A stretch of 58,346 nucleotides of DNA from a bacterium (GCA_043803945.1 JAZDJN010000059.1:1-58346), one strand, 5' to 3'; counted from the stretch's first letter, positions 7,101-27,967 are shown. The notes: a model not told the origin generated them from the sequence alone. Program-made: numbers and translations.

Positions 7101-9181
7101 AGATTACCTCTGTAGTATCGTCCAATACTCACTTTACGATTTCTCCAAAGGATACTGTGGTGAAAGTAGCGGATTCGATCCGTTATTTCATCACCTTCCA
7201 TCCCGATGCTGTTGCTAAGGATACAGCGTTCATCCTGTTCTCCCATGGCTCACCGGTAAAGGTCGATACGGTGAAGGTAGTAGGCACGAGCATCTGGCCA
7301 ATCTTCTCGGCTTCTGCTGATAGTATCCAGTTTCCGCGAACGCTGGTCGGTTCTTCGAAAGTGGATACATTGGCGGTGATCAATACAGGAACAGCGGATC
7401 TCATCATTACCTCAGTGACAAGCTCCGATACATCACAATTCAAAGTAGTACCACTCACTGATACCTTGAGCATCGGAGAGAAAGGGAAATTCGCTGTACG
7501 ATTCATCCCTTCTTCACCGGGAAGTAAGAATGCAACAATAGTGTTTTCTCAGAATAGTCCACTGTCACCCTTTACACTGAAAATCAGCGGTATTGGAGGT
7601 GCGACAACTCCGCCGTGGTCGGTTGTACAAAACACCGGGAAAAATGCAAATATCGCCATTCCAAACTCCATTAATCCAGCCATTGGAAGCCAGGTGTTAA
7701 AGACAGGTGATGCAGTGGGTGTCTTCTTTAAGCGAAACGACAGTCTGTTCTGTGCAGGGTATACAGCATGGCAGGAAGGACAAAACGCTGCAATAACAGC
7801 ATGGGGTGATAATGATCAAACGCCTATGAAGGATGGTTTGACAGAAGCTGAGTTGATGCAGTATAAAATATGGAGTGCGGAGCTTGATCGGGAGTATACA
7901 GCGAAAGTTCTCTATCAATCAGGCCCGAGTGTTAATTATCAGACGAATGGTATCTATGTCCTTAGTTCTCTGGTCGGAATGATAACGATAACACATAATA
8001 TTGTTCTTCCTAAGGGTTGGAATATGATTTCGAGTTTTGTCATGCCGAAAGATACTCTAGTCGACACCCTGTTTGCAGCGGTGAAACTGCGCCTCACCAT
8101 TATGAAAAACAATGGAGGACAAGTCTATTGGCCGGGGCAAAGCATTAATACAATCCAATCCTGGAATAAGTACCATGCCTATCAGATTTATATGCAGTCT
8201 AAAGATACGTTACGTTTTCTCGGCGAAGAGATCGATCCGCAACTGACACCGATCTCGCTGCCCCAGGGGTGGAATCTATCACCGTATTTACGCAATACCG
8301 AGATGCGTGTTGATTCGGCACTGAAAACAATTGAGAGTTCTTTAATCATCGTAAAGTCTGGCATTGGGAAAATTTACTGGCCGACGTTTGCCATTAATAC
8401 GATCGGCACGATGAAGCCAGGTCAGGGCTACCAGTTCTATACCGTTGCATCATCAACGTTAACATATCCATCGAATACTGGAAGTGCACCGCCCACCGTT
8501 TTTACAAAGATCGCATTGGCGGAAGGTGAGACAATTGTTCTAGAGCCAACTCATTATAAACCAGGAAACACTGAAACCGGATCGAATGCGATCATATTGG
8601 TTCAGAATGGTAAATTAAATGACGGAGATGAAATTGGCGTTTGGACATCAATGAATAAGTTGGTCGGAAGCGGGATAGCTCTCCATGGGAAGGCAGTTGT
8701 GACAATATGGGGAGATAATTCTATGACCTCGGAATCAAAGGAAGGTGCATCGGAGGGAGAAGTATTAACACTAACTCGCTGGTCGCAGAAGGAAGAACCG
8801 GTCTCCATAATCTCATTGGTTAATGGACTGACGAATGCCGTGGAACCTTGTGTATTGTGCTATCGGGCCGATGCCCTTTGGATAGCGGATGTTAAAACGG
8901 CCGCAGAGATGATTCCGGTTCAATTTATACTTGACCAGAACTATCCGAATCCCTTCAACCCATCGACAACCATTCACTACGGCTTGCCGAAGGATGTGAA
9001 GGTTTCCTTGGACATCTATGACCTCCTTGGCAAGAAAGTTGCCTCGCTTGTAAATTCAGAGCAGAAAGCGGGTAATTATACTGTGGTGTTCCAGAATCAA
9101 TCACTCTCAAGCGGAGTCTACTTCTATACGATTGTTGCTGGAGATTTTAAATCGACGAAGAAATTAGTCCTCTTAAAGTGA
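1166..9181 (+). CDS. Giant T9SS-secreted protein (2671 aa): FN3, two parallel beta-helix modules, Ig-like domains, GWN repeats, type-A CTD
   Basis: Signal peptide ending VDA-Q; FN3-like APTNLTF..LHW..YYWKVFA; many IxGNxI repeats; NTG..L.ITSV Ig-like repeats; QNYPNPFNPST CTD. Confidence 0.9.
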   Translation: MKSLLTICCSIAVTIILFESVVDAQSITNYSLAASSGSYTPLSSGTAVSWSGANYSPAIPLGFDFYYMGTKYKQVYTSWAGFLTFNSAALSHDPYTEGNHLGSSITEFRPLIAPLWDDAVNSASGKYRTDGITGNRTFTFEWVSVKWAPFAGDATISYQLILYEATGKIEFVYQQLDGDINNPSASIGLAAAGTGANNFLSLDTTGTHPNASSTIAFDSLNAKPATGQVYAFTPAGTSAPTNLTFSNVGARGMDLHWTDTATDELRYEIYSSTDGTTYAYVDSVAANSNYYTAKYLSPNTTYYWKVFAVREFLSTPLTSSQTTGSPSLSGTKTVGPTGEYPTLTAAVSAINLYGLIGNLILELQGSYSSALETFPITFANLSNAADKTVTIRPAIGASNLTISGASTSSMIIFNAGDYITIDGRPGGTGSSQELTIQNIETSGGSAISFSNDATNNIVRYCKLKSIDTLANRGVVFFGTTAIETGVGNDNNTIDHCDIDASQSGLGIYSVGSTATNRNSGNVISSNTIHDFYPFQYSTTALAAGVYLGLGNKEWIITGNSIYQTATRPYVKPTIGASATYYGVVVNDQSDGYSFDISNNYIGGSAANAGGNAWTMSGAMKFWAIYFGGTNTNAPAPSSIQGNTITNINISSSFPTVSDIFSGIYIQYGPVDIGTTTGNIIGSETTTDAISITLASSSPALYGWVSGIRRVNNHSGSTSNNIVGGFTLASLDPSVAIYFYGIYVSGTGSISNNIIGNRTVANSIVNSSGGSFTGTGFISYGIYASTGGLVVSGNTIANLNFSSTGSGCQFIGINSINGSSSIERAIANNTIRDITLAGTSATLITGIKLTVPITSGYTYSISGNQVFNIQSTHTTAAVGLRGIWIMGSTKPGVVEKNLIHGLSMATSSEATVMLGFYVRTGSTFRNNIVRLGIDASGNSITSPINIWGFYKDISSINNSYFHNTVYIGGSGVTTGAKSTSAFCSAVSTGTDTLWNNIFMNARSSVDSSGTHFAILLPNINVISDYNVYYVNGKGGNIASFDNATTSLNSINAIRERLVHQIHENQELHSAVGDPHFVNTSGAAFDLHVQSPTPAEGSGLPLASVTTDFTGNLRSSYTPTDIGAYAGTFTLADYFTPNISYTNLTPGRVGSTRVAAGITITDVGSGVPTSGGYKPRIWFRNQTKSSAWASVAGVLQSGNGNNGEWNFTIDYALSGGTPAMGDTIQYYFTAQDQESTPNIWYSPYVGANHSDVAAQISAPITPQTYVILGELSGTLNVPGDYSSLTKSDGLFAALRNAVLAGDLTINITADLTEDGAMSLASVFQEVPGTYHLSIRPNGTTVRTISGAGASGLIMLDGVRDVVIDGRYGGSGKYLLFRNTANAPTLTFSNDASLNTIVSCTFEGAPTSTTKGVVTFAAGFTTGNNQNTISGCTIRSRSDSSRTPMIGIFCVPFGDVEGTVGGSNNSIVQCEIFDFSMFGIIVNSAVQEETGNTTAYQNWTITGNTIYGLTEQTSSSQYQSGVLTGISLTSGGTANTISNNIIRDLTTIDYYVNGIVVTGSTAIISGNKLYNLVSRPAGGYIYGINVTGSQPATVRVFNNIISLVTNDSSGAYVIGLGDQYYHDLAKSYFEYNTVYIRGTAPADPSNGQWSCGYYRQGYGESYLRNNILICKRVYTGDRYENPIADDQSGGVLISNYNFCAGNGFWAGSIGMLDIAGWRSAGYGDSSSWVMSADSITTDSLFTDAANHDLNIKTNSPYAWYVNGKGIPLASVASDWNGTPRSVSVANGATDIGMDEFTPSSLPPLAKVDKSPMLRDSSIFSFAGRMLGVVRWDSTGTVPDSVQFRYYSGTPLPGSPEQKHSDGYWGIQAIGGSGYRYDLSLNFDDAILGTIISIDAMKMLKRDGGAWQMLGNSTVNLSNKTISVKGLTLFSEFAIGDTSNVVTPPGAGVFTPSKTIVSFGTVRRGTVKVDSVFIKNTGTDSLKITSVVSSNTHFTISPKDTVVKVADSIRYFITFHPDAVAKDTAFILFSHGSPVKVDTVKVVGTSIWPIFSASADSIQFPRTLVGSSKVDTLAVINTGTADLIITSVTSSDTSQFKVVPLTDTLSIGEKGKFAVRFIPSSPGSKNATIVFSQNSPLSPFTLKISGIGGATTPPWSVVQNTGKNANIAIPNSINPAIGSQVLKTGDAVGVFFKRNDSLFCAGYTAWQEGQNAAITAWGDNDQTPMKDGLTEAELMQYKIWSAELDREYTAKVLYQSGPSVNYQTNGIYVLSSLVGMITITHNIVLPKGWNMISSFVMPKDTLVDTLFAAVKLRLTIMKNNGGQVYWPGQSINTIQSWNKYHAYQIYMQSKDTLRFLGEEIDPQLTPISLPQGWNLSPYLRNTEMRVDSALKTIESSLIIVKSGIGKIYWPTFAINTIGTMKPGQGYQFYTVASSTLTYPSNTGSAPPTVFTKIALAEGETIVLEPTHYKPGNTETGSNAIILVQNGKLNDGDEIGVWTSMNKLVGSGIALHGKAVVTIWGDNSMTSESKEGASEGEVLTLTRWSQKEEPVSIISLVNGLTNAVEPCVLCYRADALWIADVKTAAEMIPVQFILDQNYPNPFNPSTTIHYGLPKDVKVSLDIYDLLGKKVASLVNSEQKAGNYTVVFQNQSLSSGVYFYTIVAGDFKSTKKLVLLK

Positions 9182-9547: not shown

Positions 9548-9711
9548 CATCACAGAGTCAACATGGGTTTGCTTGTTCTTGGTACCCTGAGAACAAATCA
9601 TCCATTCGAATCCTCACTAACGATTCTGGGGAGTTTATCGTCCTAACGATACAAGAATCGATGCAAGATTATTTTCGTGACTACCATTCAATTCAATTGA
9701 TGGAGGGATTT

Positions 9712-12700
9712 ATGGGAGCACAGTTCGCCCGCCGAGCCATTACCCTGGCAATACTACTGGTTATCGCGCTCTTCCTGATGCAAGCAGAAGCGATTGCTGC
9801 ACCGGGGAACGTTACATTGAATGTCCCTTCAGGAGCAACGGCTCATTCCCTGTTGCTTAGCTGGACGCAGAGCGCCGATACGATCTTTAAAGAGTATCGG
9901 TTGTACAGGAGTCTGACGACGCCGGTCACACAAAGTTCGCAACTGATCGCATCAATTACTTCTAAGAGTACAATCAGCTATAAAGATTCTTTATTGAGAG
10001 CAGGCACAAAGTATTATTATAAAGTCTTTGTGGTGGATACTCTTGGGGGGATAAGCACCGGGAGCAACGAAGTGAATGGCACCACAGTGCCGAATACATT
10101 CCCCTTTGCTGATGATATGGAAGGCAATACCGAACTCAATTATACTGCCGAAGGATTGTGGGGGCTCACAACAACTGCTGCGAACTCTCCAGGCAAAAGC
10201 TGGACAGACTCTCCGGTTGGCAATTACGCGAATACTGTCGATGCTTCTCTCAATCTTCCGATCAATCTGTCGAATGCCACGATGCCGATACTGACATTTT
10301 GGACCCGCTTTGGCACAGAGCCGAACGGTGATTTTGGACGAGTCGAGGTAAGCATTGGCACCGGGTGGACTGTTGCGGGGTATTGGACAGGAAGTCAAAC
10401 GGCGTGGAAAAAAGTGACGTTGGATCTTACACAGTGGGCAGGCTCAAGCAATGTTACCGTACGCTTTCGGTTCACAACCAATGGCAATGCCACGGTAAGT
10501 GACGGCTGGTATATCGACGATGTAATGATTGCGGAAACGACAAATCCTACGTTGGGCTATCCCTTTTATGAAGCGTTTGATGATTCAACGTATATCACCA
10601 GATGGAACATGGCTCAGTGGCAAGTGGTCACCGATGGCAGAAGTGTGCCGGGGAGAGTTCATGATTCTCCGCAAGGAAATTATCTCCAGTCAGGGGGAAC
10701 AGGCGCTTCGGATGATCCAAATAGTTTTACAAGCCTTACCACCGCGGGTACTATTGACCTCATCTCAGCCATTGAACCTGTGTTGACGTTCTGGCAAAAG
10801 TACGATTTAAAGTATTACAATGGCAGCTACCACTACGAAACCGATGCTGGTCGTGTCTACATTTCGACCAACAATGGATTACCGGGAACATGGGTCCAAA
10901 TCTATTCTGTGTCGAACGCCGGACAAACCGCTAGCTGGCAGCGTGTTGAGGTCGATCTCTCACCGTACGTCGGAAACTCTTCGGTACGATTCCGTTTTGT
11001 TGTTGATGATCAGCGGGATCAAGATCCGAATACGTATGGTGATCAGTCAGAAAGTGGTGATGGTTGGTGGATCGATGACATTCGCATTGAAAATCGACCG
11101 GCGAAAGTTACGATGAATGCCCCTGCAAATGTTTCGATGCATGGTGTAACATTAAGCTGGACACAGAATACAGATACAGATTTTCAGCGGTATGAAATCT
11201 ATCGAAATACTTCAACCGCCATCGACCGCTCCAGCCAGCTCATTGCGACAATCACAGATAAAGCTACAACCTCATACTACGATGTATCTCAGGTTTTACA
11301 GCCGACAAACTACTCCTATCGCGTCTACGTTCTCGATACACTCGAGACCGTCAGTACAGGAAGTACTATCGTTACCGCATCCTATTCGGTTCCAACGGTA
11401 ACGTTTCCATTCGCTGATAGCGTCGATGTAGCTGCAGACACCACAAAATGGGCATGGAGCTCGCCATGGGGTCGCACCAACAGTAAATCGCATTCAGGTT
11501 CGTTCAGTTGGACAGACAGCCCGAATTCGAGTTATTCTCCCAACAGCAATACCGCACTCTCGACGAATATCAATCTTTCTTCAAGCACATCACCTGTGCT
11601 TACGTTCTGGCATCAGTACAGCCTGGAGACGAATGTCGATTATGGCTATGTCGAAATATCCACCAATGGAGGTTCTTCCTGGGCAGCGATACATACGGTG
11701 ACGGGTATCGATACTTCGTGGAAACAGGTGCGGATCGATTTATCCGCCTATATTGGCAGCACCATCGGCCTGCGATTCCGGCTTATGTCCAGTGCATCAA
11801 TGCACCTTGACGGCTGGTACATCGATGACATCGTGCTGAATGATGGGATACGAATTGTCGGCTATCCCTTCACAGAGGATTTTGAACAGGGATTCAACCG
11901 CTGGTTTGTTGAGAACCCATGGGGCCTTACACAGGATAATCCCCATGGCGGCAACAATGCAATGACAGACAGCCCCTCTGGAACCTATGCTGATAATTCA
12001 GACACCGAACTGCTGATGCATATCAATCTTGCCTTAGCGCAAATGCCTGTACTCAAGTTCTGGACACGCTTTAGTACCGAAGTGAATGTCGATTATGGAA
12101 GAGTAGAGGTGAACATCGGCTCGGGCTGGATTGTTGCGGGGTATTGGACTGGAACGCAATCGACATGGAAACAGATTTCTGTCGATCTCACGCCCTGGGC
12201 GGGATCCAGCGACGTTCAGATCCGGTGGCGTCTCACATCGAATGGATCCATGTTCAGCGATGGATGGTATATCGATGACATCTCCATAGCGGAATCCTCT
12301 ATGCCAACGATGAGTTATCCCTTCATTGAGAGTTTCGACGATTCGACGAGCCGGGGGCGATGGTATTTCTCTCAATGGGAAATTGTGACTGATGGGAGAA
12401 GTGTGCCAGGGCGGGTTCATGACTCGCCAATGGGGAACTATCTCCAATCTGGCGGGTCCGGAGCATCGGATGAACCGAATAGCTTTACATCGTTGACAAC
12501 TTCCGGTCTCATCGATCTCTCGACTGCTGTGGATCCCATTCTTTCCTTCTGGCAAAAGTACGATCTTAAGTACTACAATGGTAATTATCACTTCGAAACC
12601 GATGCTGGTCGTGTCTATATTTCCTCCAATCGGGGAGCACCCGGATCGTGGGCACAGCTTTACTCAGTGACAAACGCCGGTCAAACAGGTTCATGGCAGC

Positions 12701-15700
12701 GCGTTGATGTCGATCTCTCAGCGTATGTCGGACAATCGAATGTGCGGCTGCGATTTATCATGGATGATCAACGGGATCAGGATCCGAATACGTACGGTGA
12801 TCAATCAGAAAGTGGTGATGGTTGGTGGATCGACGATATTCGCATTGAAAATCGTCCGACGAAAATAACGCTCGCTCCGCCCTCCCATGTGTCGATGCAT
12901 GGGGCTAGCCTGAGTTGGAATAAGAATAATGACGGCGATTTCCGTCGGTATGAACTCTATCGGTATACAACAAATGCAGTCGATCGGTCGTCGCAACTGA
13001 TCGCGACAATTTCCAATGCAGAACAAATAACATTTACCGATACCTATTCGGCAATTCACCCAACGCACTATTTCTATCGAATCTATGTTCTTGACACTCT
13101 TGGTACAGTGAGCCTAGGAAGCAACGTTGTCGAAGCAACATATGCTATTCCCACAGTGACATTTCCGTTCGTCAATGATGTTGAGACTGCTGCTGACACG
13201 GTAAAGTGGGCATGGGGAGATCCCTGGGGAAGAACATCAGTTCGGGTTCACTCCGGAAGTTATAGCTGGACTGATAGTCCAAACTCCAACTATCCTCCAA
13301 ATGCAAATGCGGTGATGATGAACTTTGTCAGTCTCTCGGGCAGTACTTCTCCGGTGCTTACCTTCTGGCACTCTTATATGCTTGAGGAAGGGTATGACTA
13401 TGGCTATGTTGAAGTCAGCACCGACAATGGCTCGACGTGGCAGGCGATTCATGCCGTCACAGGTATCGATACAGCGTGGAATCAGGAGCGTATCGATCTG
13501 TCAGTCTATACCGGCAGCACAATTGGTTTTCGGTTTAGGTTAACATCGAATGCATCGAACCAGCTCGACGGATGGTACATCGATGATATTCGAATTGAAA
13601 ACGGTGCCCTCATCGCCGCTTACCCTTTTTCCGATAATGTCGAGAGCGGCAATCCTATTTGGTTTATGGATTCTCCATGGAGCATGACCAATATTGATGC
13701 CCATGGCGGACAAATGAGCTGGACTGATAGTCCGGCCGGCAGCTATACCAATAACACCGATAATAGCCTGAAACTTCACATTAATCTCTCACTGGCAAAA
13801 ATGCCCGTACTGACATTTTGGACACGCTATGCAACCGAAGTCAACGTCGATTATTGCCGTGTCGAAGTGAACTCCGGAACAGGATGGACAATTGCGGGGT
13901 ACTGGTCAGGATCGCAATCGACGTGGAGACAAATCCGTGTCGATTTATCTCAGTGGGCCGGCAGCAGCGATGTGCTTATCCGCTGGAGACTTACCTCGAA
14001 CTCCGGAGGTGTGAGTGATGGGTGGTATATCGACGACATTGAAATCAAAGAGACCACGATTCCAAAACTTGTCTATCCTTTCCTCGATTCCTTCGATGAT
14101 TCGACCACCTACTCGAAGTGGAATACTTCTCAATGGGATATCGTCACGGGAGGCAGAAGTCCGCAGGGAACAATTCACGACTCTCCTACGGGGAATTATC
14201 TCCAATCGGGAGGCACCGGAGCTTCTGATAATCCAAACAGCTTTGCTGCTCTCGTGAGCGCGAATGTGATCGATTTAAGCAGGGCAGTAAACCCCATACT
14301 CACGTTCTGGCAAAAATACGATTTGAAATTTTACAACGGAAACTATCATTTTGAAGCAGATTATGGGCGTGTCTATGTCTCTGCAAATTATGGCTTGCCC
14401 GGTACCTGGACACAACTTTACTCGGTAACGAATGCAGGACAAACATCTACCTGGCAGCAAGTCTCCATCAGTCTTTCGGTGTACGCCGGCCTGCCGAATG
14501 TCCGTTTAATGTTTGTTGTCGACGATCAACGAGATCAAGACCCGAATACCTATGGCGATCAGTCTGAAAGCGGCGGTGGGTGGTGGATCGATGACCTTCG
14601 TATTGGCGAAAATATCAGCGCAACAGCGGTCGTCGACTCCGCAATCGTCGAGAGCCCGGCTCAAACGACATCGACACCCGCTCAGCCGATAGAACGAATC
14701 TATGGCTTGGTGTACGAGCCAGCGAAAACAACGGTTGCAGGTCAGGGGGCTGGAATCCTTGCGCAACTGGGCCTTGGTCCCCATGGAAGCTATCCCAACG
14801 ATACAACATGGAGCTGGATTAATGCAACATATCTGAACGATGCCGGCGGCTCCGATCGATACTTTGGTTCGCTCACCGCTCCATCGATTGGTACATACAG
14901 CTACACGTTCCGCTTCTCTGCCGATGGAGGCACAACGTGGATCTATGCAGATCTCAATGGCAATTACGAAGGCACAAATAGCTCTAATGGATTCTCCCCT
15001 GAAAAAACCGGAACGCTGGTTGTATCGAACCGCCCGGATATGCAGCTCTCATTAGATTCGATTCTGGTGTACTTGCCTGTCGGTTCCCTCCAGAATTGGA
15101 GCTTTTATCTCGGCAATGGCGGTGCCGATGCTCAGGGTCCGTTAGGATTCAACATACTCGAAAGTACCGATGGGACTAATCCAGCAGAGATTATCTGGTA
15201 TGGAATTAACATTAGAAGCGGTTCTATCCTGCCGAAGAATCGTTCCGTTATCATGTTGACCTTTGATGCGACAGGATTAAAAACAGACACAACATATCGC
15301 GCCTACCTGGTGATCAACAGCAACGATCCCAACCGAAGTAAAGTCTCTGTTCCCGTTATCCTTCGCACAGTTGCATCGAGCACAACATTGCTTCGGGGTG
15401 TTGTGACAGATCTACAAGACCAAAGAATTTCAAACTTTGCCCGGGTGGAAGTGTTCCAGAATGGCTCGCTCGTTACCAGCGTGACCTCTGACGCAAACGG
15501 GAACTTTATTATCTATGGTTTATCCAACGGCATCTATGATTTGCGTGTTGTTTCAGAAGCCTTTTTCCCGAAATTGTTACCTTCCATCAGTGTGCCAATC
15601 AGTCCTGTAACGATTCGTCTCAGCAATATTCCGAAGCACTTTCCGACGAACAAGAGCATCAATGCATACAGTACGTCTGCCATGTTTGGAGGTAGCGGAG

Positions 15701-17154
15701 TTCGACCGGGAGATGTAATTACAGTCGCAGATCCAAGCGGAGTGTTCTGTGGCGTATTTATGGTGCACACTGCAGGACAATATGGTTTCATGCATGTTTA
15801 TGGAGACGACGCTACAACACCGACAGTTGACGAAGGCGCGGTTGCGGGCGACACGCTGAAGTTCTTCATCAACGAATATCCGGCACAGACTCTTGGACCC
15901 GATGCGCCAAGATGGATGAGTGAAAACGCGGTCATCCAGGTTGCCCTTGCTGCACAGAACCTCGATATCATTCCCCTCGTATTGAACTGGAATCTCATCT
16001 CCTTTACATCGGTGCCGCCGAATGATTCCATTAAGGCTGTTCTCAACTCTATCGATGGGAAGTATTCACTCGTGAGCAGTTTTGATCTTTCGTGGGGAGG
16101 TGCGCGGACGTATGATCCTGCCCTGCCACAATTCAGTGATCTCTCCAAAATGGATGCACAGAATGGCTATTGGATCAAGCTGACTCAGGCAGATACATTA
16201 CGCATTCCGGGTGAGCGAATAAACACCGATCTACCGCTGGCACTGGAACAGGGGTGGAACCTTATCCCCTACGTACCAGAGATTGCGCTCCCTGTTGCCA
16301 CTGCACTCTCAAGTATCGCCGGCAAATACAGCATTGTCAGCGGATTTGAGAACGGAGCAAAAACATTTGTTCCCGGAAGCCCATTCAACGATCTTGCAGC
16401 AATGAAAAACGGCCTGGGCTATTGGGTGAAAACCAGCCAGCCGGTAGTAATGAATTATGCGGGGGGAACGATGGGTGCTCAGAAAATGGATGAACTCCTT
16501 CTTACTACATCGCTCGTCTCCAATCCTGTGCAGGCCACTCCGCTGTGGACGGACTACTACGGCTCGTTCACCATTGGCGGAAAACCTGTTCCACGAGGCG
16601 AAACGGTCGAAGCGTTTGATAACAACGGCATCAAGTGCGGAGAAGTTGTTGTTAAGACCGATGGGATCTATGGCTTCCTCCATGTCTATGGCGATGATCC
16701 GAACACACCGGGTATCGACGAAGGGGCGAGACCGGGCGATGTGATAACCTTGAAATATCGCAGCCAGATTATTGCACAGATGGAGTTGAAAGAATTACGA
16801 TGGAATGGCGATCACACCTCACGCCGATTCGATGTCTCCATCGCTCAACTCGGTGAGAGTAATAGCCTTCTCCCGACGACGTATGACTTATTACAGAACT
16901 ATCCGAACCCCTTCAATCCGACGACGCGCATCCGATATCAAATGCCGGAGGATGGTATCGTCACGGTGAAGATCTTCGATGTGCTTGGACGTGAGGTCCG
17001 CTCATTGGTGAATGAGCAGCAGAAGGCGGGCTTCTATTCACTGGAATGGGATGGGAAGAACAGCTATGGCTTAGATGTCTCCGCCGGCACCTACTTCTGC
17101 CGGATGCAGTCAGGACAATTCTCTAAATCGATGAAAATGGTCTTCGTAAAGTAA
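9712..17154 (+). CDS. Giant T9SS-secreted protein (~2480 aa): tandem FN3 plus MAM/jelly-roll-like repeats, carboxypeptidase-regulatory-like domain, FlgD-Ig/type-A CTD
   Basis: ORF 9661-17154; start moved to ATG 9712 (GGAGGG RBS, then signal peptide). Repeated WTDSP..Y..N / RFRL.S....DGWYIDD units; CTD QNYPNPFNP..WDGKN..SAGTYFC. Confidence 0.9.
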   Translation: MGAQFARRAITLAILLVIALFLMQAEAIAAPGNVTLNVPSGATAHSLLLSWTQSADTIFKEYRLYRSLTTPVTQSSQLIASITSKSTISYKDSLLRAGTKYYYKVFVVDTLGGISTGSNEVNGTTVPNTFPFADDMEGNTELNYTAEGLWGLTTTAANSPGKSWTDSPVGNYANTVDASLNLPINLSNATMPILTFWTRFGTEPNGDFGRVEVSIGTGWTVAGYWTGSQTAWKKVTLDLTQWAGSSNVTVRFRFTTNGNATVSDGWYIDDVMIAETTNPTLGYPFYEAFDDSTYITRWNMAQWQVVTDGRSVPGRVHDSPQGNYLQSGGTGASDDPNSFTSLTTAGTIDLISAIEPVLTFWQKYDLKYYNGSYHYETDAGRVYISTNNGLPGTWVQIYSVSNAGQTASWQRVEVDLSPYVGNSSVRFRFVVDDQRDQDPNTYGDQSESGDGWWIDDIRIENRPAKVTMNAPANVSMHGVTLSWTQNTDTDFQRYEIYRNTSTAIDRSSQLIATITDKATTSYYDVSQVLQPTNYSYRVYVLDTLETVSTGSTIVTASYSVPTVTFPFADSVDVAADTTKWAWSSPWGRTNSKSHSGSFSWTDSPNSSYSPNSNTALSTNINLSSSTSPVLTFWHQYSLETNVDYGYVEISTNGGSSWAAIHTVTGIDTSWKQVRIDLSAYIGSTIGLRFRLMSSASMHLDGWYIDDIVLNDGIRIVGYPFTEDFEQGFNRWFVENPWGLTQDNPHGGNNAMTDSPSGTYADNSDTELLMHINLALAQMPVLKFWTRFSTEVNVDYGRVEVNIGSGWIVAGYWTGTQSTWKQISVDLTPWAGSSDVQIRWRLTSNGSMFSDGWYIDDISIAESSMPTMSYPFIESFDDSTSRGRWYFSQWEIVTDGRSVPGRVHDSPMGNYLQSGGSGASDEPNSFTSLTTSGLIDLSTAVDPILSFWQKYDLKYYNGNYHFETDAGRVYISSNRGAPGSWAQLYSVTNAGQTGSWQRVDVDLSAYVGQSNVRLRFIMDDQRDQDPNTYGDQSESGDGWWIDDIRIENRPTKITLAPPSHVSMHGASLSWNKNNDGDFRRYELYRYTTNAVDRSSQLIATISNAEQITFTDTYSAIHPTHYFYRIYVLDTLGTVSLGSNVVEATYAIPTVTFPFVNDVETAADTVKWAWGDPWGRTSVRVHSGSYSWTDSPNSNYPPNANAVMMNFVSLSGSTSPVLTFWHSYMLEEGYDYGYVEVSTDNGSTWQAIHAVTGIDTAWNQERIDLSVYTGSTIGFRFRLTSNASNQLDGWYIDDIRIENGALIAAYPFSDNVESGNPIWFMDSPWSMTNIDAHGGQMSWTDSPAGSYTNNTDNSLKLHINLSLAKMPVLTFWTRYATEVNVDYCRVEVNSGTGWTIAGYWSGSQSTWRQIRVDLSQWAGSSDVLIRWRLTSNSGGVSDGWYIDDIEIKETTIPKLVYPFLDSFDDSTTYSKWNTSQWDIVTGGRSPQGTIHDSPTGNYLQSGGTGASDNPNSFAALVSANVIDLSRAVNPILTFWQKYDLKFYNGNYHFEADYGRVYVSANYGLPGTWTQLYSVTNAGQTSTWQQVSISLSVYAGLPNVRLMFVVDDQRDQDPNTYGDQSESGGGWWIDDLRIGENISATAVVDSAIVESPAQTTSTPAQPIERIYGLVYEPAKTTVAGQGAGILAQLGLGPHGSYPNDTTWSWINATYLNDAGGSDRYFGSLTAPSIGTYSYTFRFSADGGTTWIYADLNGNYEGTNSSNGFSPEKTGTLVVSNRPDMQLSLDSILVYLPVGSLQNWSFYLGNGGADAQGPLGFNILESTDGTNPAEIIWYGINIRSGSILPKNRSVIMLTFDATGLKTDTTYRAYLVINSNDPNRSKVSVPVILRTVASSTTLLRGVVTDLQDQRISNFARVEVFQNGSLVTSVTSDANGNFIIYGLSNGIYDLRVVSEAFFPKLLPSISVPISPVTIRLSNIPKHFPTNKSINAYSTSAMFGGSGVRPGDVITVADPSGVFCGVFMVHTAGQYGFMHVYGDDATTPTVDEGAVAGDTLKFFINEYPAQTLGPDAPRWMSENAVIQVALAAQNLDIIPLVLNWNLISFTSVPPNDSIKAVLNSIDGKYSLVSSFDLSWGGARTYDPALPQFSDLSKMDAQNGYWIKLTQADTLRIPGERINTDLPLALEQGWNLIPYVPEIALPVATALSSIAGKYSIVSGFENGAKTFVPGSPFNDLAAMKNGLGYWVKTSQPVVMNYAGGTMGAQKMDELLLTTSLVSNPVQATPLWTDYYGSFTIGGKPVPRGETVEAFDNNGIKCGEVVVKTDGIYGFLHVYGDDPNTPGIDEGARPGDVITLKYRSQIIAQMELKELRWNGDHTSRRFDVSIAQLGESNSLLPTTYDLLQNYPNPFNPTTRIRYQMPEDGIVTVKIFDVLGREVRSLVNEQQKAGFYSLEWDGKNSYGLDVSAGTYFCRMQSGQFSKSMKMVFVK

Positions 17155-24049: not shown

Positions 24050-24271
24050 TTAAAACAAGTCCATCTGTGGATCGAATAACCTGCCTTTGTCCAATTTCTT
24101 TTTAAGCTTATTCAGCCGGCTATTGACCCCGGTAAGTTTGCGGAGAGCATCCTGAGCGGAGAGTTGATGAGTTCTGGTGAATTCAATTTCTCGTCGTAAT
24201 TGAGCCTGAAGAACCAGCAATTGAGTAAGTTCAGTCTCAACGGTTATTTGTCGCTGACTCTTGTCCTTCAT
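24050..24271 (-). CDS. Small coiled-coil protein with C-terminal QMDLF (clamp-binding-like motif)
   Basis: 73 aa; paralogous to 27740-27967 (L.REIEF.R...LS...A.RK). Confidence 0.7.
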   Translation of the reverse strand: MKDKSQRQITVETELTQLLVLQAQLRREIEFTRTHQLSAQDALRKLTGVNSRLNKLKKKLDKGRLFDPQMDLF

Positions 24272-24568
24272 TGAACTAAAGGTAGCTATTTACCATATTA
24301 GGTTCCACAAGGATATCGACTTACTTTTCTGGATGGAGTGCGATGGGATTGGTTTCGATGGCAGGAGCTTCCGGAGCCTCTTTTTTTGCCAATTCAGAAT
24401 TTATTGAAGCAGTCTTACAATCCTTTTTCTTCATAGATAGACTATGCTGTACCGCAATGGTGGAAAGAACAATTCCCAATTACATTCGTTTTATGCTATA
24501 TTACCCCGGTCTCTATATTTATCCAAATCTATAGTAAAGAGTTAATGATTCAATGCATCCAAGCAATT

Positions 24569-24676
24569 GCCATAGAGACACTGAGAACACAGAGGTATCT
24601 ATTAAGATTCCCTTAAAATTACGCATTTAGACATCGCTGCATTCTCTTTTCTCTGTGTGCTCTGCGTCTCAGTGGC
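24569..24676. repeat. CACAGAG/CTCTGTG-type inverted repeat element, copy 1
   Basis: GCCATAGAGACACTGAGAACACAGAG..spacer..CTCTGTGTGCTCTGCGTCTCAGTGGC; similar to 58230-58325. Confidence 0.65.
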
Positions 24677-24810
24677 TGAGGTACTACGCAAAGAGTTACA
24701 AGAAAGGCGGCTGGCATTTCTTGGGAGATAATCGAAGTATCGAAACTGAACATTTTTCAAACAGACTTGGCTTGTCACATCATATCAATTCACTATTGGA
24801 GGTCAAACGT

Positions 24811-26940
24811 ATGCGAAAACAACAATCACGATGGATGAATGGAGTGGTATGGACGGTCTTCGTCGTCATGCTTGGACTCATGGTTGGCAGTGTTATTGCA
24901 CAGGATCGTCTTCCTTCGATGCCGGGGTATGAGCAGTACAAAAAGATGAGTCCGGAGATTAGGGACTCTGTGAAACTGGGCTCTTTCTCCGTCATCTGGA
25001 AGGATGATAGTAAATCTTTCGAGTATAGACGGGACGGTAAGACCTATCGTTATGATATTAAAACCCGCAAAGCGACTGAAGTGAAGGGTGCCGTTGCCCC
25101 AGCAGCCGCACCGATGGGTCGACCGGGAGGCCGCCAGATGTCAAGGTTTGCGGGGAGTGGACCGCGTCCGGAGCGCGGCCGGCAATATATTGCTGCAATT
25201 TCTCCTGATGGGAAACGGAAAGCATTTTATCGAAACCGCAATTTCTGGATCAGCGACTCCAGCGGTGCGAACGAATTTGCCGTTACAACTGAGGGTAATG
25301 AAAAAGCTCGGATTAAATACGGAACGGCAAGCTGGGTGTATGGAGAAGAGCTGAATCAAGTAACGGCGATGTGGTGGTCACCCAATAGCAAAAAGGTTGC
25401 ATACTATCGCTTCGATGAAAGTCAGATAAAGGATTATTACCTGCAATTCAAACAAATCGAGCTGCAGGATAGCATGGATATCGAACCATACACCAAGGTT
25501 GGCGCACCCAATCCGGTGGTGGATATTTATGTCTATGATCTTGACACAAAGAATATCGTAAAGGTAGATGTGCGGGACGAGAAGCCGTTTGATAATAACG
25601 TTGTCGGCCACTATATCTATGGAATTTCCTGGACCACGGATGGAAGTGAATTGCTATTCCATCGGACAAACCGGCGGCAGAATATTATGGAATTGACAGC
25701 GGCAGATCCGACATCAGGAAAATGCCGTGTTATTGTTCACGAGGAATGGCTGCCCAGCTTCACAGAAAACACGCCCTTCATGCAATTTATGAAGGATAAC
25801 AAGCGGTTCATCTGGATGTCCGAGCGGAATGGATTTAATAATTATTATCTCTACGACCTCAGCGGCAAGCTGCTGTCGACACTTACGAATCATCAATTTG
25901 AAGTCGCCAATATTGTGCGCGTCGATGAGGATGCTAAGTTGATCTACTACATGGCCCGTGACGGTGACAATCCTATGAAACTCCAATTGCATCGGGTCGG
26001 CCTCGATGGCAAAGGCGATGTGCGGCTTACCGATCCGGCATACAACCACACCGTGAACGTTTCACCTGATGGCAAATACTTCGTCGATGTTGCTCAAACC
26101 CACGATAGTCCTCCCTTTTCGCGGTTAATGGATATCAAAGGGAAAGTAGTGGACGAACTGGTGAAGAGTGATATGACAAAATTTGAGCAACTCGGGTTAA
26201 AAAAAGTGGAGTTGATTACATTCAAGGCTGCAGATGGGAAAACCGATCTTCATGGCATGTTGAATTTTCCATCGAACTTCGATCCGAATAAGAAATACCC
26301 GGTGCTTGTCAGTGTCTATGGCGGACCCGCGACGAATGCAGCACGGGAAACGTTCTCTATACCTTCTGCAATGGCAGAATATGGATTTCTGGTTGCATCA
26401 TTCGATGCGCGCAGTGCCGGCGGGCGCGGCAAGCGCTTCCTGGATCAATACTACGGTCATTTTGGGATTGTCGAAATGGATGATTTTGCAGAAGGGGTGA
26501 AATCTCTGTGGAACAGGCCGTATGTCAATAAAGAAAAGGTCGGAATTTTCGGGACGTCGTTTGGTGGAACCTCTTCAGCTACTTGTCTCTTGCGATTTCC
26601 CGATGTGTTTCACGCGGCAGTCGCCAATTCCGGTGTCTACGATTTCCGGAACTACGATAATATCTATACCGAACGCTATATGGGTTTAGTCCCAGAAGAT
26701 AAAGCCGGTTATGATGCAGGCAACACGTTGAACTTCGTCAATAATTTAAAAGGCCACTTGATGATTTACTACGGGACATCTGATAATAATGTTCATCCTT
26801 CAAATTCTATGCAGCTCATCAATTTATTGCAAATAGCAAAGAAGAGCTTCGAGGTTCAGGTCGGTCCGGATAGAGGCCACACCGCTGTCAATCAGGAACG
26901 CATGATGGAATTCTTTATCGAGAATCTGGTTTTGAGATAA
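24811..26940 (+). CDS. S9-family dipeptidyl-peptidase IV-like serine peptidase
   Basis: WVYGEEL, WWSP, VYGGP, nucleophile GTSFGG, DNNVH, RGH; start moved to ATG 24811 (GGAGG RBS, signal peptide). Confidence 0.92.
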   Translation: MRKQQSRWMNGVVWTVFVVMLGLMVGSVIAQDRLPSMPGYEQYKKMSPEIRDSVKLGSFSVIWKDDSKSFEYRRDGKTYRYDIKTRKATEVKGAVAPAAAPMGRPGGRQMSRFAGSGPRPERGRQYIAAISPDGKRKAFYRNRNFWISDSSGANEFAVTTEGNEKARIKYGTASWVYGEELNQVTAMWWSPNSKKVAYYRFDESQIKDYYLQFKQIELQDSMDIEPYTKVGAPNPVVDIYVYDLDTKNIVKVDVRDEKPFDNNVVGHYIYGISWTTDGSELLFHRTNRRQNIMELTAADPTSGKCRVIVHEEWLPSFTENTPFMQFMKDNKRFIWMSERNGFNNYYLYDLSGKLLSTLTNHQFEVANIVRVDEDAKLIYYMARDGDNPMKLQLHRVGLDGKGDVRLTDPAYNHTVNVSPDGKYFVDVAQTHDSPPFSRLMDIKGKVVDELVKSDMTKFEQLGLKKVELITFKAADGKTDLHGMLNFPSNFDPNKKYPVLVSVYGGPATNAARETFSIPSAMAEYGFLVASFDARSAGGRGKRFLDQYYGHFGIVEMDDFAEGVKSLWNRPYVNKEKVGIFGTSFGGTSSATCLLRFPDVFHAAVANSGVYDFRNYDNIYTERYMGLVPEDKAGYDAGNTLNFVNNLKGHLMIYYGTSDNNVHPSNSMQLINLLQIAKKSFEVQVGPDRGHTAVNQERMMEFFIENLVLR

Positions 26941-26979
26941 GTCTTCTCGAACTGTTTCTGGATCTATTCCAACTGAAAG

Positions 26980-27008
26980 GTAGGGAGCGCCCCACATCGT
27001 GGGGCGCT
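26980..27008 (+). repeat. GTAG-type REP-like palindrome (may also terminate transcription)
   Basis: GTAGGG-AGCGCCCCAC-ATC-GTGGGGCGCT. Confidence 0.55.
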
Positions 27009-27043
27009 TGTTTGGCTATGAATAGACCATACTACGCCAATAA

Positions 27044-27099
27044 ACTGTCTTCTGTCTGCTCTCTGCAGTCTGTGCTCTGCAATCTCTATACTTTATACT
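27044..27099 (+). repeat. Degenerate 7-nt periodic tandem repeat (8 units)
   Basis: ACTGTCT TCTGTCT GCTCTCT GCAGTCT GTGCTCT GCAATCT CTATACT TTATACT. Confidence 0.6.
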
Positions 27100-27351
27100 T
27101 ACTGCAATATATTTTCTACTTTATCCATTACACTTCTTACCATAAAACCTCGTTGATTTTGGTTGAGGGTTTCCTTACTATTAATCAGGATCAAATGGAA
27201 AGAAAAGAGGCTTGATCGCAGCTTATCATTCCAATCATCGTTCAAGAGCAGGCGAGATTTGTGATCATGCGTTCGAAGTATCAGACTATGGATAATAGAA
27301 TACCAATTATCGTCGAAGGGAAGGACAACCCATTCCACGAGAGGAGAAGCT

Positions 27352-27555
27352 ATGCCAACAATTGATCTTCATGATTTTATCAATCAGCTTCACTCACAAT
27401 TTCCCAAGTTGAAGAATTACGATGAGACACGGATCCTCAGCATTTTGATGGAGGCAGGGATGAATGTTGAATTCGAATTTGACGCCGATGGGAATACACT
27501 TGTGAAATATGATGATATGACTCCAGAAATAAAAGAGAAACTCGTACATATCTAA
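27352..27555 (+). CDS. Small acidic hypothetical protein (67 aa)
   Basis: GAGGAG RBS, ATG start, protein-like composition. Confidence 0.65.
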   Translation: MPTIDLHDFINQLHSQFPKLKNYDETRILSILMEAGMNVEFEFDADGNTLVKYDDMTPEIKEKLVHI

Positions 27556-27739
27556 ACCATCATTCACTTCGTACACTCTGTATTTTAAGCTTCATACTTC
27601 TCTGTACCGTCCGAATACCGCTCTCCCGGGTCTTCAAACACTATCAATGCTCGTCTTAGAATATTGCTGCTCTTGGATTAGAAAGGGCAGATGCTGTAAC
27701 AAACTATTCTTTCAAGATGAATATTCGAAAAGTGCAGGC

Positions 27740-27967
27740 CTAAAAATTAAAATCCAATTGCGGGGTGAGGAAATGTGCGTTTGCGGTCCTGGACTTCAAC
27801 CGCTCAATTATTTTATCAAGAGAGGCAATCTTCCGTTCAGCGGCAGCCGGACTCAGATTATTCCGTCTGGCAAATTCAATTTCGCGGTGGAGTTGATTGT
27901 GTTGTCCAATGAGCCGGTTCAGTTCGGACTGCAATAAACCGATGTTGTTCTGGAGGTCTTCAATCAT
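27740..27967 (-). CDS. Small coiled-coil protein with C-terminal QLDFNF (clamp-binding-like motif)
   Basis: 75 aa; paralog of 24050-24271. Confidence 0.7.
   Translation of the reverse strand: MIEDLQNNIGLLQSELNRLIGQHNQLHREIEFARRNNLSPAAAERKIASLDKIIERLKSRTANAHFLTPQLDFNF

Follow-up and report, generated by a model that had tools for sequence, protein, structure and literature searches.

Two paralogous microprotein genes in an Ignavibacteriales genome

The window, a stretch of 58,346 nucleotides, comes from an Ignavibacteriales genome and carries two short genes of interest on its minus strand. ORF A (24050..24271, stop codon included) encodes 73 amino acids and was defined by the ORF listing, paralogy with ORF B, family profile matches and an AlphaFold2 hairpin; ORF B (27740..27967, stop codon included) encodes a 75-aa paralog, defined by the ORF listing, BLASTP and its standing as the second copy in the genome. 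Between them, in a gap of 3,468 bp, is a plus-strand gene for a DPP-IV peptidase. The two genes, their lengths and strand and a spacing of about 3.5 kb were found as in the initial annotation, and the paralogy claimed there was borne out by a single BLASTP comparison (21/62 identities, 34%, no gaps, E 5e-12), in which the string EL..L.....QL.REIEF.R...LS...A.RK was common to both. ORF A ends in GRLFDPQMDLF and ORF B in AHFLTPQLDFNF, each followed by the stop codon, and these two are the only copies in the 5.54-Mb genome.

Both ORFs are short, lack a Shine-Dalgarno sequence and have no family annotation, as would be expected if they were chance open frames rather than genes. This is extremely improbable, and is already contradicted by conservation at the protein level despite saturated synonymous change; homologs were also found in several genomes and metagenomes, and the AlphaFold2 fold prediction was confident. 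Between the copies in genomes G009 and G140, pN was 0.112 against a pS of 0.835, and dN/dS in three other family pairs was 0.21, 0.39 and 0.215. A six-frame translation of this genome holds 28,536 ORFs of 50 aa or longer; ORF A alone ended in Q[LM][DSNE][LMF]F, and only four, ORF B included, ended in Q[LMV]x[LIFM]x[FL]. Because homologs exist elsewhere, substitutions are biased to synonymous sites and such endings are rare genome-wide, the pair goes beyond chance. ORF A and ORF B are under purifying selection and are predicted to be protein-coding genes of the expressed type.

A small, lineage-restricted family

Family members beyond this genome were recovered by a profile search, proposed earlier as a check, across 1.84 billion representatives. 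Eleven proteins matched at E<=1e-3: eight short family members (counting P0009, a truncated P0004-like sequence), two long carriers and one spurious match (P0008). More members were found in genomes G009, G140 and G155, as a decayed copy in G156, and in metagenome loci L085 and L086; the copies in G155 and L086 are decayed as well. The members are cytoplasmic microproteins of about 64-108 aa, and their range covers a few Ignavibacteriales genera plus metagenomes. No Pfam or NCBIfam family was found for them and no enzyme domain is present in the family, in agreement with the initial description of an unrecognised and enzyme-less group; all seven source names among 13 listed cluster members read "hypothetical protein". 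A match to effector-associated domain 11 (EAD11, PF19964) was obtained for ORF A only, one of 11 members, at 17.6 bits (E 0.0039) against a gathering cut-off of 26 bits, and membership in that family was rejected. The ORF A/ORF B family is therefore real and undescribed, small and restricted to its lineage.

A helical hairpin with a conserved, flexible tail

AlphaFold2 predicted ORF A with a mean pLDDT of 80.9 (about 86-95 over residues 11-60) as a helical hairpin of residues 2-65 (24077..24268, minus strand; helices 2-34 and 40-65). Conserved columns in the hairpin are E14, L25, E28, I29, A42, K45 and L46, which include the QLRREIE and A..KL positions. The hairpin pattern noted initially was thus recovered by modelling for ORF A, while that of ORF B is inferred from the alignment, since the ORF A/ORF B alignment is ungapped.

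The tail of ORF A (residues 63-73, G-R-L-F-D-P-Q-M-D-L-F; 24053..24085, minus strand) follows the hairpin and ends in the pentapeptide QMDLF (24053..24067); that of ORF B (residues 64-75, A-H-F-L-T-P-Q-L-D-F-N-F; 27743..27778, minus strand) was placed by sequence, alignment and the hexapeptide pattern and ends in QLDFNF (27743..27760), which matches that pattern. The tail is the most conserved segment of the family, with a mean pair score of 2.46, against 1.56 for the body and 0.57 for the N-terminus. The family consensus at the extreme C-terminus is G-x-L-F-D-x-Q-[LM]-[D/E/N]-[L/I/F]-(x)-F. Residues G63, L65, F66, D67 and Q69 are near-invariant and the final L-F columns vary more. The upstream G-x-LFD extension of the conserved element had not been noticed in the initial annotation.

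In the monomer model, residues 61-73 of ORF A have a pLDDT below 60 and are not packed. A tail that serves within the protein or an oligomer, by packing on the hairpin or locking a four-helix bundle, would need no external partner and would make the family a small structural or regulatory coiled-coil protein. A short amphipathic element could arise from the hydrophobic pattern L65, F66, L/M70, L72, F73, and in the AlphaFold2 model there is a one-turn helix at residues 67-69 of ORF A; the hairpin resembles generic oligomerising hairpins, with a weak profile resemblance (hhalign 48%) to the C-terminal helix-loop-helix of MutS, which is an oligomerisation domain. We consider such a role improbable, given the low pLDDT and lack of packing, the Pro or Gly at position 68 in several members, which disfavours a continuous helix, and the exact C-terminal end kept in 10/11 members, more typical of a terminal docking peptide.

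Resemblance of the tail to sliding-clamp motifs

The initial annotation had read both endings as motifs binding the DnaN sliding clamp. Both do carry Q-[LMIV]-x-[LMIF]-(x)-[FL] at the C-terminus. Excerpts of a review (PMC11139829) name QLDLF as the strongest-binding clamp peptide and describe a preference for Leu or another aliphatic residue at position 2, a free position 3 with slight preference for Asp, and F, L or I at the last position; penta- and hexameric motifs bind with similar strength, the flanks are mostly acidic or the motif stands at a free C-terminus, and a second pocket buries the Met that precedes the Pol IV motif by three residues. The motifs of bacterial clamp clients covered there (QL[S/D]LF and hexapeptide forms; Pol II, Pol IV, the Pol III alpha C-terminus) have the same Q-aliphatic-x-aliphatic-(x)-F/L pattern of 5-6 residues, and the clients likewise have a disordered terminal tail, acidic flanks and a free carboxylate; two family members carry QLDLF itself. 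The family differs in placing the motif on a 60-residue hairpin without a catalytic domain, in the conserved G-x-LFD that precedes it and in the four of 11 members that depart from the pattern.

Loss of the tail in homologs had been named as a finding on which the clamp reading would fall, and the outcome was mostly in favour of that reading: the Gln is present in 10/11 non-redundant members, but four break the canonical motif. Position 3 is acidic or Asn in all 11, and in 10/11 the motif is at the extreme C-terminus, with the stop codon directly after the last hydrophobic residue, despite saturated synonymous divergence. A strict penta- or hexapeptide clamp motif stands at the end of 7/11 non-redundant members (11/15 with near-duplicates), as QMDLF, QLDFNF, QMEIEF, QLNLF, QLDLF (two members) and QMELF; the L086 copy ends in QLELF after a 1-nt frame shift. 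The non-canonical tails are three of the g10 type, Q[QE]DH[AST]L, with polar residues at motif positions 2 and 4 (QQDHAL in G009, QEDHSL in P0003, and QEDHTL followed by seven more residues in G140), and one RLDLF, without Gln, in G155. Clamp-like short motifs are degenerate and difficult to call from sequence, as parts of PMC9690074 point out.

DnaN is canonical in this genome, and its gene stands in the order dnaA-dnaN-recF. The DnaE of the genome carries QSNLF and the MutS of the order carries Q[LM][TA][LMI]F in 30/30 sequences; the lineage uses the same form of clamp motif. The DnaN columns that we take to be pocket residues were invariant across 30 relatives, G009 included, and therefore no compensating change of the clamp explains the Q[QE]DH[AST]L and RLDLF tails.

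Co-folding with DnaN, a check proposed at the outset, placed ORF A above its controls but only at a grade of weak: ipSAE was 0.57 (runs 0.59, 0.56 and 0.57) against 0.26 for the best of three controls. In the calibration 58/80 solved complexes and 2/110 mismatched pairs reached the mark, and those that did so at <=0.60 were only seven of the 80 solved complexes but both mismatches. By the tool's calibration, most passes at such a score are wrong, except where the guess had a high prior likelihood. The runs had no less than 87% of their contacts in common, and partner pLDDT was at least 75. The pass may also reflect memory, because clamp-peptide complexes have already been solved.

In the loci examined, the gene context of family members does not point to replication or repair. 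In the window, an ECF sigma operon and a glycosidase gene are neighbours along with the peptidase gene; the G009 gene lies between two response-regulator genes, and an amidohydrolase-like gene lies alongside the G155 and L085 genes. The tail could be a short linear motif directed at a different partner, recognised through G-x-L-F-D-x-Q and an acidic-hydrophobic end, with the likeness to clamp motifs coincidental; a receiver domain, an RNA polymerase surface or a protease adaptor are possible hubs. The general architecture is similar to that of CheZ, in which a helical hairpin is followed by a CheY-binding peptide at the C-terminus. The near-invariance of G63, L65, F66, D67 and Q69 rather than of the terminal L-F, the loss of hydrophobic positions 2 and 4 in Q[QE]DH[AST]L tails and of Gln in G155, the weak grade of the co-fold and the gene contexts all suit this explanation. 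Against it, the strict motif was matched by only 2,121/300,000 shuffled tails (0.7%), compared with 7/11 actual ones; both accepted length classes are present, and the substitutions follow the per-position tolerance given in the excerpted review (PMC11139829). None of the searches run indicated an alternative partner, and the response-regulator neighbourhood was seen at one locus only. We regard a different partner as somewhat unlikely. The conserved element, whose most invariant residues are mostly upstream of the pentapeptide, may nevertheless represent another motif with which a clamp-like ending overlaps. The clamp interpretation was thus upheld in part: an unrecognised, enzyme-less family with a mostly kept tail was recovered, but the non-canonical tails do not fit it.

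Comparison with known systems

T4 gp33 is, in the excerpted account of PMC2988020, a non-enzymatic late-transcription co-activator of 112 residues that contacts the RNA polymerase flap through one surface and the sliding clamp through a C-terminal epitope that is both hydrophobic and acidic. That clamp is the phage gp45 and not DnaN, and no sequence relation to the family was detected (PHROGs matches in 0/10 members). Mu MuC, as described in parts of a preprint (10.1101/2025.01.04.631326), is a 16.5 kDa transcription factor with an N-terminal QHDLF needed for function, and its overexpression is toxic through the clamp; it differs from the family in the N-terminal motif and in being DNA-binding, and is unrelated in sequence. 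The two are precedents for small non-enzymatic proteins tethered to a clamp.

The end of the order's MutS reads Q[LM][TA][LMI]F-E-x-K-D-D-x-LREE...TPL[ED]ALQKLAELKK (30/30 sequences). Here a clamp motif and a helix-loop-helix stand side by side as in the family, but in reversed order, the motif preceding the helices in MutS, an 870-aa enzyme, and following them in the family. The family profile matched the MutS C-termini of G038 and G055 at E about 1e-3 to 6e-3; hhalign of the family against the MutS C-terminus gave 48.2% (E 1.8e-4, 33 columns), against 6.7% with the single own sequence, and BLASTP gave E 0.01.

YabA has a C-terminal Cys/His zinc-binding domain. Membership in its family, which we take to be PF06156, was rejected, with no match in 11 members at E<=0.1 and no Cys/His cluster in the sequences. 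As a small coiled-coil protein that binds DnaN and, as a second partner, DnaA, YabA nonetheless resembles the design proposed for the family; it controls replication initiation in low-GC Gram-positives (excerpts of PMC4705661), a lineage different from that of the family. SocB of Caulobacter and RipA of Streptococcus pneumoniae are clamp-targeting toxins with cognate antitoxins, whereas the family has no conserved partner gene. A type II toxin-antitoxin pair (SocAB/RipAB type) was rejected, as neighbours differ in every locus examined: the 67-aa neighbour of ORF B is absent in G009 but present in genomes that lack the family, and a 79-aa ORF is not conserved.

The module in polyvalent proteins of mobile elements

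The whole hairpin-plus-tail module is also present inside two giant polyvalent proteins of mobile elements, P0010 and P0011, copies that the initial annotation had missed. In P0010 (hhalign 95.8%, E 6.8e-9) it carries ...PLFGTEQETLF... and lies directly after ART-PolyVal, in a protein that also has LPD23; in P0011 (hhalign 95.3%, E 2.4e-8) it carries ...GDMFNKQEDIF..., in a protein with PHROG matches to a DarB-like antirestriction protein and a ParB C-terminal domain and with relatives on 14 IMG/VR contigs. Q-x-x-[LI]-F is kept in both embedded copies. As the motif is internal there, the module can do without a free carboxylate, and its presence in two polyvalent proteins suggests that it behaves as a portable docking module. 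Among polyvalent proteins it is sporadic, being absent from P0013 and 14 phage loci. The paper defining polyvalent proteins (PMC5512222) gives no description of the module, and its main text contains "clamp", "coiled-coil" and "helical hairpin" 0 times each. ORF A and ORF B are not polyvalent proteins themselves; they are homologous to a segment of these, free-standing at 73-75 aa and in an ordinary chromosomal setting.

The window genes might be domesticated or leftover pieces of such proteins, with a role in conflict (decoy, immunity factor) or no present host function. Besides the embedded copies in P0010 and P0011, this would account for the 35% identity of each of ORF A and ORF B to the P0010 module (BLASTP E 1e-7 and 4e-7), the 10-residue string common to ORF A and P0010, the patchy distribution and the decayed copies. 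We consider it hardly likely: no integrase, phage gene or tRNA was found around the window genes, PHROGs matched 0/10 members, PADLOC gave two marginal single-member matches only, no family relative was found in viral contigs, and purifying selection argues for a present function. It is moreover compatible with clamp docking and not an alternative to it.

A putative clamp-docking adaptor or competitor

The best reading, which we hold tentatively and at a little under even confidence, is that the family comprises putative clamp-docking adaptors or competitors. Each member combines an antiparallel helical hairpin with a short flexible tail bearing a linear motif, the last 5-6 residues of which would enter the hydrophobic cleft of DnaN. 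Extra contacts could come from the acidic flank and from the conserved Phe that precedes the Gln by three residues, as for Pol IV, and the hairpin, with its conserved charged surface residues, may self-associate or bind a second partner. As an adaptor, the protein would tether a partner to DNA-loaded clamps in the manner of T4 gp33 or Mu MuC; as a modulator or inhibitor, it would occupy clamp clefts in competition with polymerases, MutS and other clients. The role as replication or repair modulator, inhibitor or adaptor proposed initially is thus a candidate by analogy.

A broader scenario, which is quite unlikely in full, would have a clamp-docking module move between phage or conjugative polyvalent proteins and chromosomes. 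Invaders would park injected effector domains on the DNA-loaded clamps of the host, and the microproteins would be host-kept copies that tune clamp occupancy (polymerase and MutS access, hence replication and mutation rate) or decoys that block the docking site. The hairpin may even derive from the MutS C-terminal helix-loop-helix and pair with MutS itself.

Bacterial replication and repair both centre on the sliding clamp, which is also an antibiotic target, and most of its known docking partners are from a small number of model organisms. The practical value of the family is limited because of its narrow distribution and the lack of a cultivated, tractable host. If the clamp reading is true, a minimal natural ligand would join the known clamp clients, a 60-residue scaffold with the strongest-binding peptide of the review, from a phylum that has been little studied, and the presence of the module inside giant phage polyvalent proteins would suggest clamp docking as a means of host takeover or targeting, unmentioned in the polyvalent-protein literature. 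Should the tail have some other target, the family would still provide a new, conserved docking peptide at the C-terminus.

Two paralogous microprotein genes in an ordinary chromosomal setting

Two small ORFs were found on the minus strand of the window, where the initial annotation had placed them: ORF A (24050..24271; 73 aa), with the C-terminus GRLFDPQMDLF, and ORF B (27740..27967; 75 aa), which ends in AHFLTPQLDFNF. Their proposed paralogy was confirmed, with 62 residues aligning gap-free at 34% identity (E 5e-12), and they are the only two copies in the 5.54-Mb genome. The ORFs flank a gene for a DPP-IV-type S9 peptidase on the opposite strand, which probably starts at the signal-peptide Met some 52 codons into the listed ORF with its GTG start; the divergent intergenic region between ORF A and this likely start (24272..24810) is unusually long (~540 nt) and gave no Rfam match. 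The setting includes an ECF sigma/anti-sigma pair, two unknown proteins, a DUF5703/GH95-like glycosidase and Tex, and the window also encodes a DEAD helicase, a two-component system and giant proteins with T9SS sorting domains. The sigma/anti-sigma operon is on the other strand, with ORF A just downstream of it. Two giant secreted proteins of 2,671 and 2,497 aa are encoded on the plus strand at 1166..9181 and 9661..17154, and carry T9SS C-terminal sorting, Ig-like/ASH, MAM/InhA-like and reelin-subrepeat-like domains. Neither tRNAs nor mobile-element genes were found in the window, and Rfam gave no match over its whole length. The chromosomal setting of the two ORFs is ordinary.

Scanning for promoters and terminators gave counts at the level of shuffled sequence (promoter-like sites, 12 versus a mean of 8.8; terminator-like sites, 3 versus 3.9), and the upstream regions of seven family members revealed no common operator. 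GGAAC is located 35 nt upstream of the ORF A ATG and TATTTTTG 6 nt upstream of that of ORF B.

The stretch separating ORF B from the peptidase gene contains a conserved 67-aa small gene of unknown function (27352..27555, plus strand). Of 24 other genomes from the taxonomic family of this organism, 10 had it, at 46-58% identity, and neither Pfam nor NCBIfam gave a match. As it occurs in genomes without the microprotein family and is absent from G009, a relative carrying that family, it is not a partner. In the overlapping region, a 79-aa ORF (27099..27338, minus strand) was found in this genome only, 1 of 41 searched. A toxin-antitoxin partnership was therefore rejected for both.

Distribution and selection of the family

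Against 1.84 billion representative proteins, the family profile returned 11 matches at E<=1e-3, and a metagenome scan added two more loci, L085 and L086. When relatives were searched in six frames, G009 and G140, both of the same sister genus, yielded clear homologs. In a sample of the order, 7 of 277 genomes matched at E<=0.01: five with family copies (this genome, G009, G140, G155 and the decayed copy of G156) and two with MutS C-termini. The G155 copy is shortened, lacking the QLRREIE part of helix 1 and having Arg in place of Gln; that of G156 is decayed by an in-frame TAA, yet its C-terminus is still FDTQMEREF followed by a stop; and in the metagenomic locus L086 the frame shifts by 1 nt within a G-run, the tail GLFDTQLELF and its stop being intact in the next frame. 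These decaying copies (L086, G156 and G155) are located at about 330-390 of L086, about 1441-1700 of L049 and 1495..1737 of L047. In the class and phylum samples (2 of 401 genomes matched in each), the family was found in no genome besides this one, and the second match was judged spurious, being inside a long ORF and without the tail.

Other searches returned little. A word-index protein search with ORF B found ORF B alone, and one with the family alignment against longer proteins, a search type that is itself weak evidence, gave nothing at E<=0.01. Scans with the family query matched 56 pattern stretches in genome contigs and 58 in viral contigs, of which none was confirmed, and none of 10 members matched PHROGs. 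No Pfam or NCBIfam model matched, beyond coiled-coil noise under the threshold; EAD11 was rejected, having matched one of 11 members with a score under the cut-off, and two single-member PADLOC matches (E about 6e-3 to 8e-3) were disregarded. Seven of the 13 listed cluster members have a source name, in every case 'hypothetical protein', and literature searches turned up no paper on the family. As far as these searches show, the family is undescribed.

The family is under purifying selection: pN was 0.112 versus a pS of 0.835 between G009 and G140, and dN/dS was 0.21-0.39 in three other pairs. This substitution pattern contradicts the explanation that the ORFs are chance open frames, which is extremely improbable.

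A predicted helical hairpin with a conserved terminal tail

AlphaFold2 predicted ORF A to be an antiparallel helical hairpin (helices 2-34 and 40-65, pLDDT about 90) with a tail of pLDDT below 60. Foldseek against the PDB returned nothing at E<=0.001, its hits being hairpins of generic type (the seryl-tRNA synthetase arm, for example); ESM Atlas scores (0.80-0.81) were no better than chance on the figures that the tool supplies, and the best PDB sequence match of the family profile had an E of 0.37. Alignment of 11 members showed conservation to be highest in the tail (mean pair score 2.46), followed by the helices (1.56) and the N-terminus (0.57). Near-invariance was observed for G63, L65, F66, D67 and Q69, and 10 of the 11 members have their stop directly behind the final hydrophobic residue. 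Being terminal, predicted to be disordered and most conserved, the tail has the look of a docking motif; that it is instead a structural element of the protein appears improbable. Charged positions are retained in the hairpin as well (E14, E28, K45 and the string QLRREIE), which argues for a second interface or self-association.

The tail as a candidate clamp-binding motif

The initial annotation interpreted the tails as DnaN-binding motifs, a reading that the evidence supports in part. A strict penta- or hexapeptide motif was found at the C-terminus of 7 of the 11 non-redundant members (of 11 among 15 when near-duplicates are counted), as against 0.7% of composition-matched shuffled tails. 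Among 28,536 six-frame ORFs of the genome, only ORF A has the strict pentapeptide C-terminus and four, including ORF B, the hexapeptide one. A 2024 review (PMC11139829) describes the motif as having an important Gln, an aliphatic residue at position 2 (Leu best), a free position 3 with slight preference for Asp, and F, L or I at the last position, with five- and six-residue forms equivalent and the flanks acidic or a free carboxylate. The tail variants QLDLF, QLNLF, QMDLF, QMELF, QLELF, QLDFNF and QMEIEF are all within these tolerances, and the same review gives QLDLF as the strongest clamp-binding peptide. It also describes a Met, located three positions ahead of the Pol IV motif and buried in a second pocket (PMC11139829), which the family's invariant Phe, at the same spacing from Gln, may parallel.

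The genome encodes a canonical DnaN, adjoining dnaA and recF; by comparison of this protein the organism falls among the Ignavibacteriales, at no more than 68% identity to named MAGs. Co-folding of DnaN with ORF A scored 0.57 (0.59, 0.56 and 0.57) versus 0.26 for the best control, with at least 87% of contacts agreeing between runs and partner pLDDT of at least 75. This score reaches the tool's mark, as do 58 of 80 solved complexes and 2 of 110 mismatches; at or below 0.60, only 7 of those 80 passed, along with both mismatches. The result was graded as weak support and may reflect memory, as clamp-peptide complexes have already been solved.

The lineage itself makes use of this motif form, in MutS as Q[LM][TA][LMI]F and in the DnaE of this genome as QSNLF at about residue 943, both presumably at canonical client positions. 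At the C-terminus of this genome's DinB, no Q-type motif was evident. A second, divergent beta-clamp-like ORF of 386 aa was observed on contig C35 at ~118.8-121.3 kb (L054 643..1803 and 2491..3156, minus strand), with 27 bits to PF00712 when summed with in-frame neighbours (cut-off 24.4). It adjoins an ORF resembling, by eye, a phage RecT/Bet-type recombinase, and the two are probably a prophage replication module.

Several findings are against clamp binding. Three members (one from a database, and those of G009 and G140) have tails of the form Q[QE]DH[AST]L, polar at positions 2 and 4, one of which, in G140, continues seven residues beyond the motif, and G155 lacks the Gln. The DnaN columns that we take to be the cleft are invariant in 30 relatives, and the clamp therefore cannot account for these variants. 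Moreover, the most invariant residues lie mostly upstream of the canonical pentapeptide, and no neighbour gene suggests replication or repair, the neighbours changing from locus to locus. The tail could thus bind some other, unnamed partner, which we consider unlikely while giving it appreciable weight.

The family profile also touched the MutS C-termini of two relatives. All 30 MutS sequences compared from the order have the clamp motif, with Gln and Phe invariant; a variable low-complexity linker lies between it and the ATPase domain, and directly behind it is a terminal helix-loop-helix (LREE...TPL[ED]ALQKLAELKK), which resembles the family hairpin core LRREIE...DALRKL. Profile-profile comparison gave 48% probability (E 1.8e-4) over 33 columns, and 6.7% with the single MutS sequence of this genome. 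If real, the relationship would supply a candidate partner.

Embedded copies in polyvalent proteins

Polyvalent proteins are thought to be delivered into cells by mobile elements. P0010, a giant one of 3,667 aa with ART-PolyVal and LPD23 domains, has the full module directly after the ART domain (QAQLRREIEF...PLFGTEQETLF; hhalign 95.8%, E 6.8e-9; BLASTP 35% identity to both ORF A and ORF B). P0011 (1,429 aa), which matches the PHROG families 'DarB-like antirestriction' and 'ParB C-terminal domain' and whose relatives occur on 14 IMG/VR contigs, has a module with GDMFNKQEDIF (hhalign 95.3%, E 2.4e-8). A second, weaker GDTFNK...NDIF element (GDTFNKANANDIF) is located ~20 residues past the first, within residues about 245-290, and the doubling suggests tandem docking peptides. 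As profile matches the two proteins are not noise, and the motif is internal in both.

The occurrence of the module among these proteins is sporadic. A word-index search with the P0011 module region returned P0011 alone, none of seven stretches from a viral-contig scan with P0010 was confirmed, and the module is absent from P0013, a member of the P0011 cluster. Its recurrence in the phage relatives of P0011 was rejected, as the family HMM matched none of 14 loci (best E 3.2). The main text of the paper defining polyvalent proteins does not contain the word 'clamp'. The embedded copies indicate that the hairpin plus tail behaves as a portable module common to host microproteins and polyvalent proteins. 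The two genes could accordingly be a domesticated mobile-element module with a role in conflict, an explanation that can coexist with clamp docking and to which we give a low probability.

A possible clamp-docking microprotein

The best reading of the family, held tentatively and at a little under an even chance, is that of a clamp-docking microprotein. The tail would enter the DnaN cleft, and the hairpin would either recruit a partner to DNA-loaded clamps or self-associate, so that the protein would occupy the clefts and compete with polymerases and MutS. T4 gp33 (PMC2988020), Mu MuC (preprint 10.1101/2025.01.04.631326), YabA (PMC4705661) and the clamp-targeting toxins SocB and RipA would be analogues by mechanism, without common descent. 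If it does bind the clamp, the family would join the known small non-enzymatic clamp-tethered proteins, with added interest in its minimal size, in tails that equal the strongest-binding peptide, and in its presence in phage polyvalent proteins.
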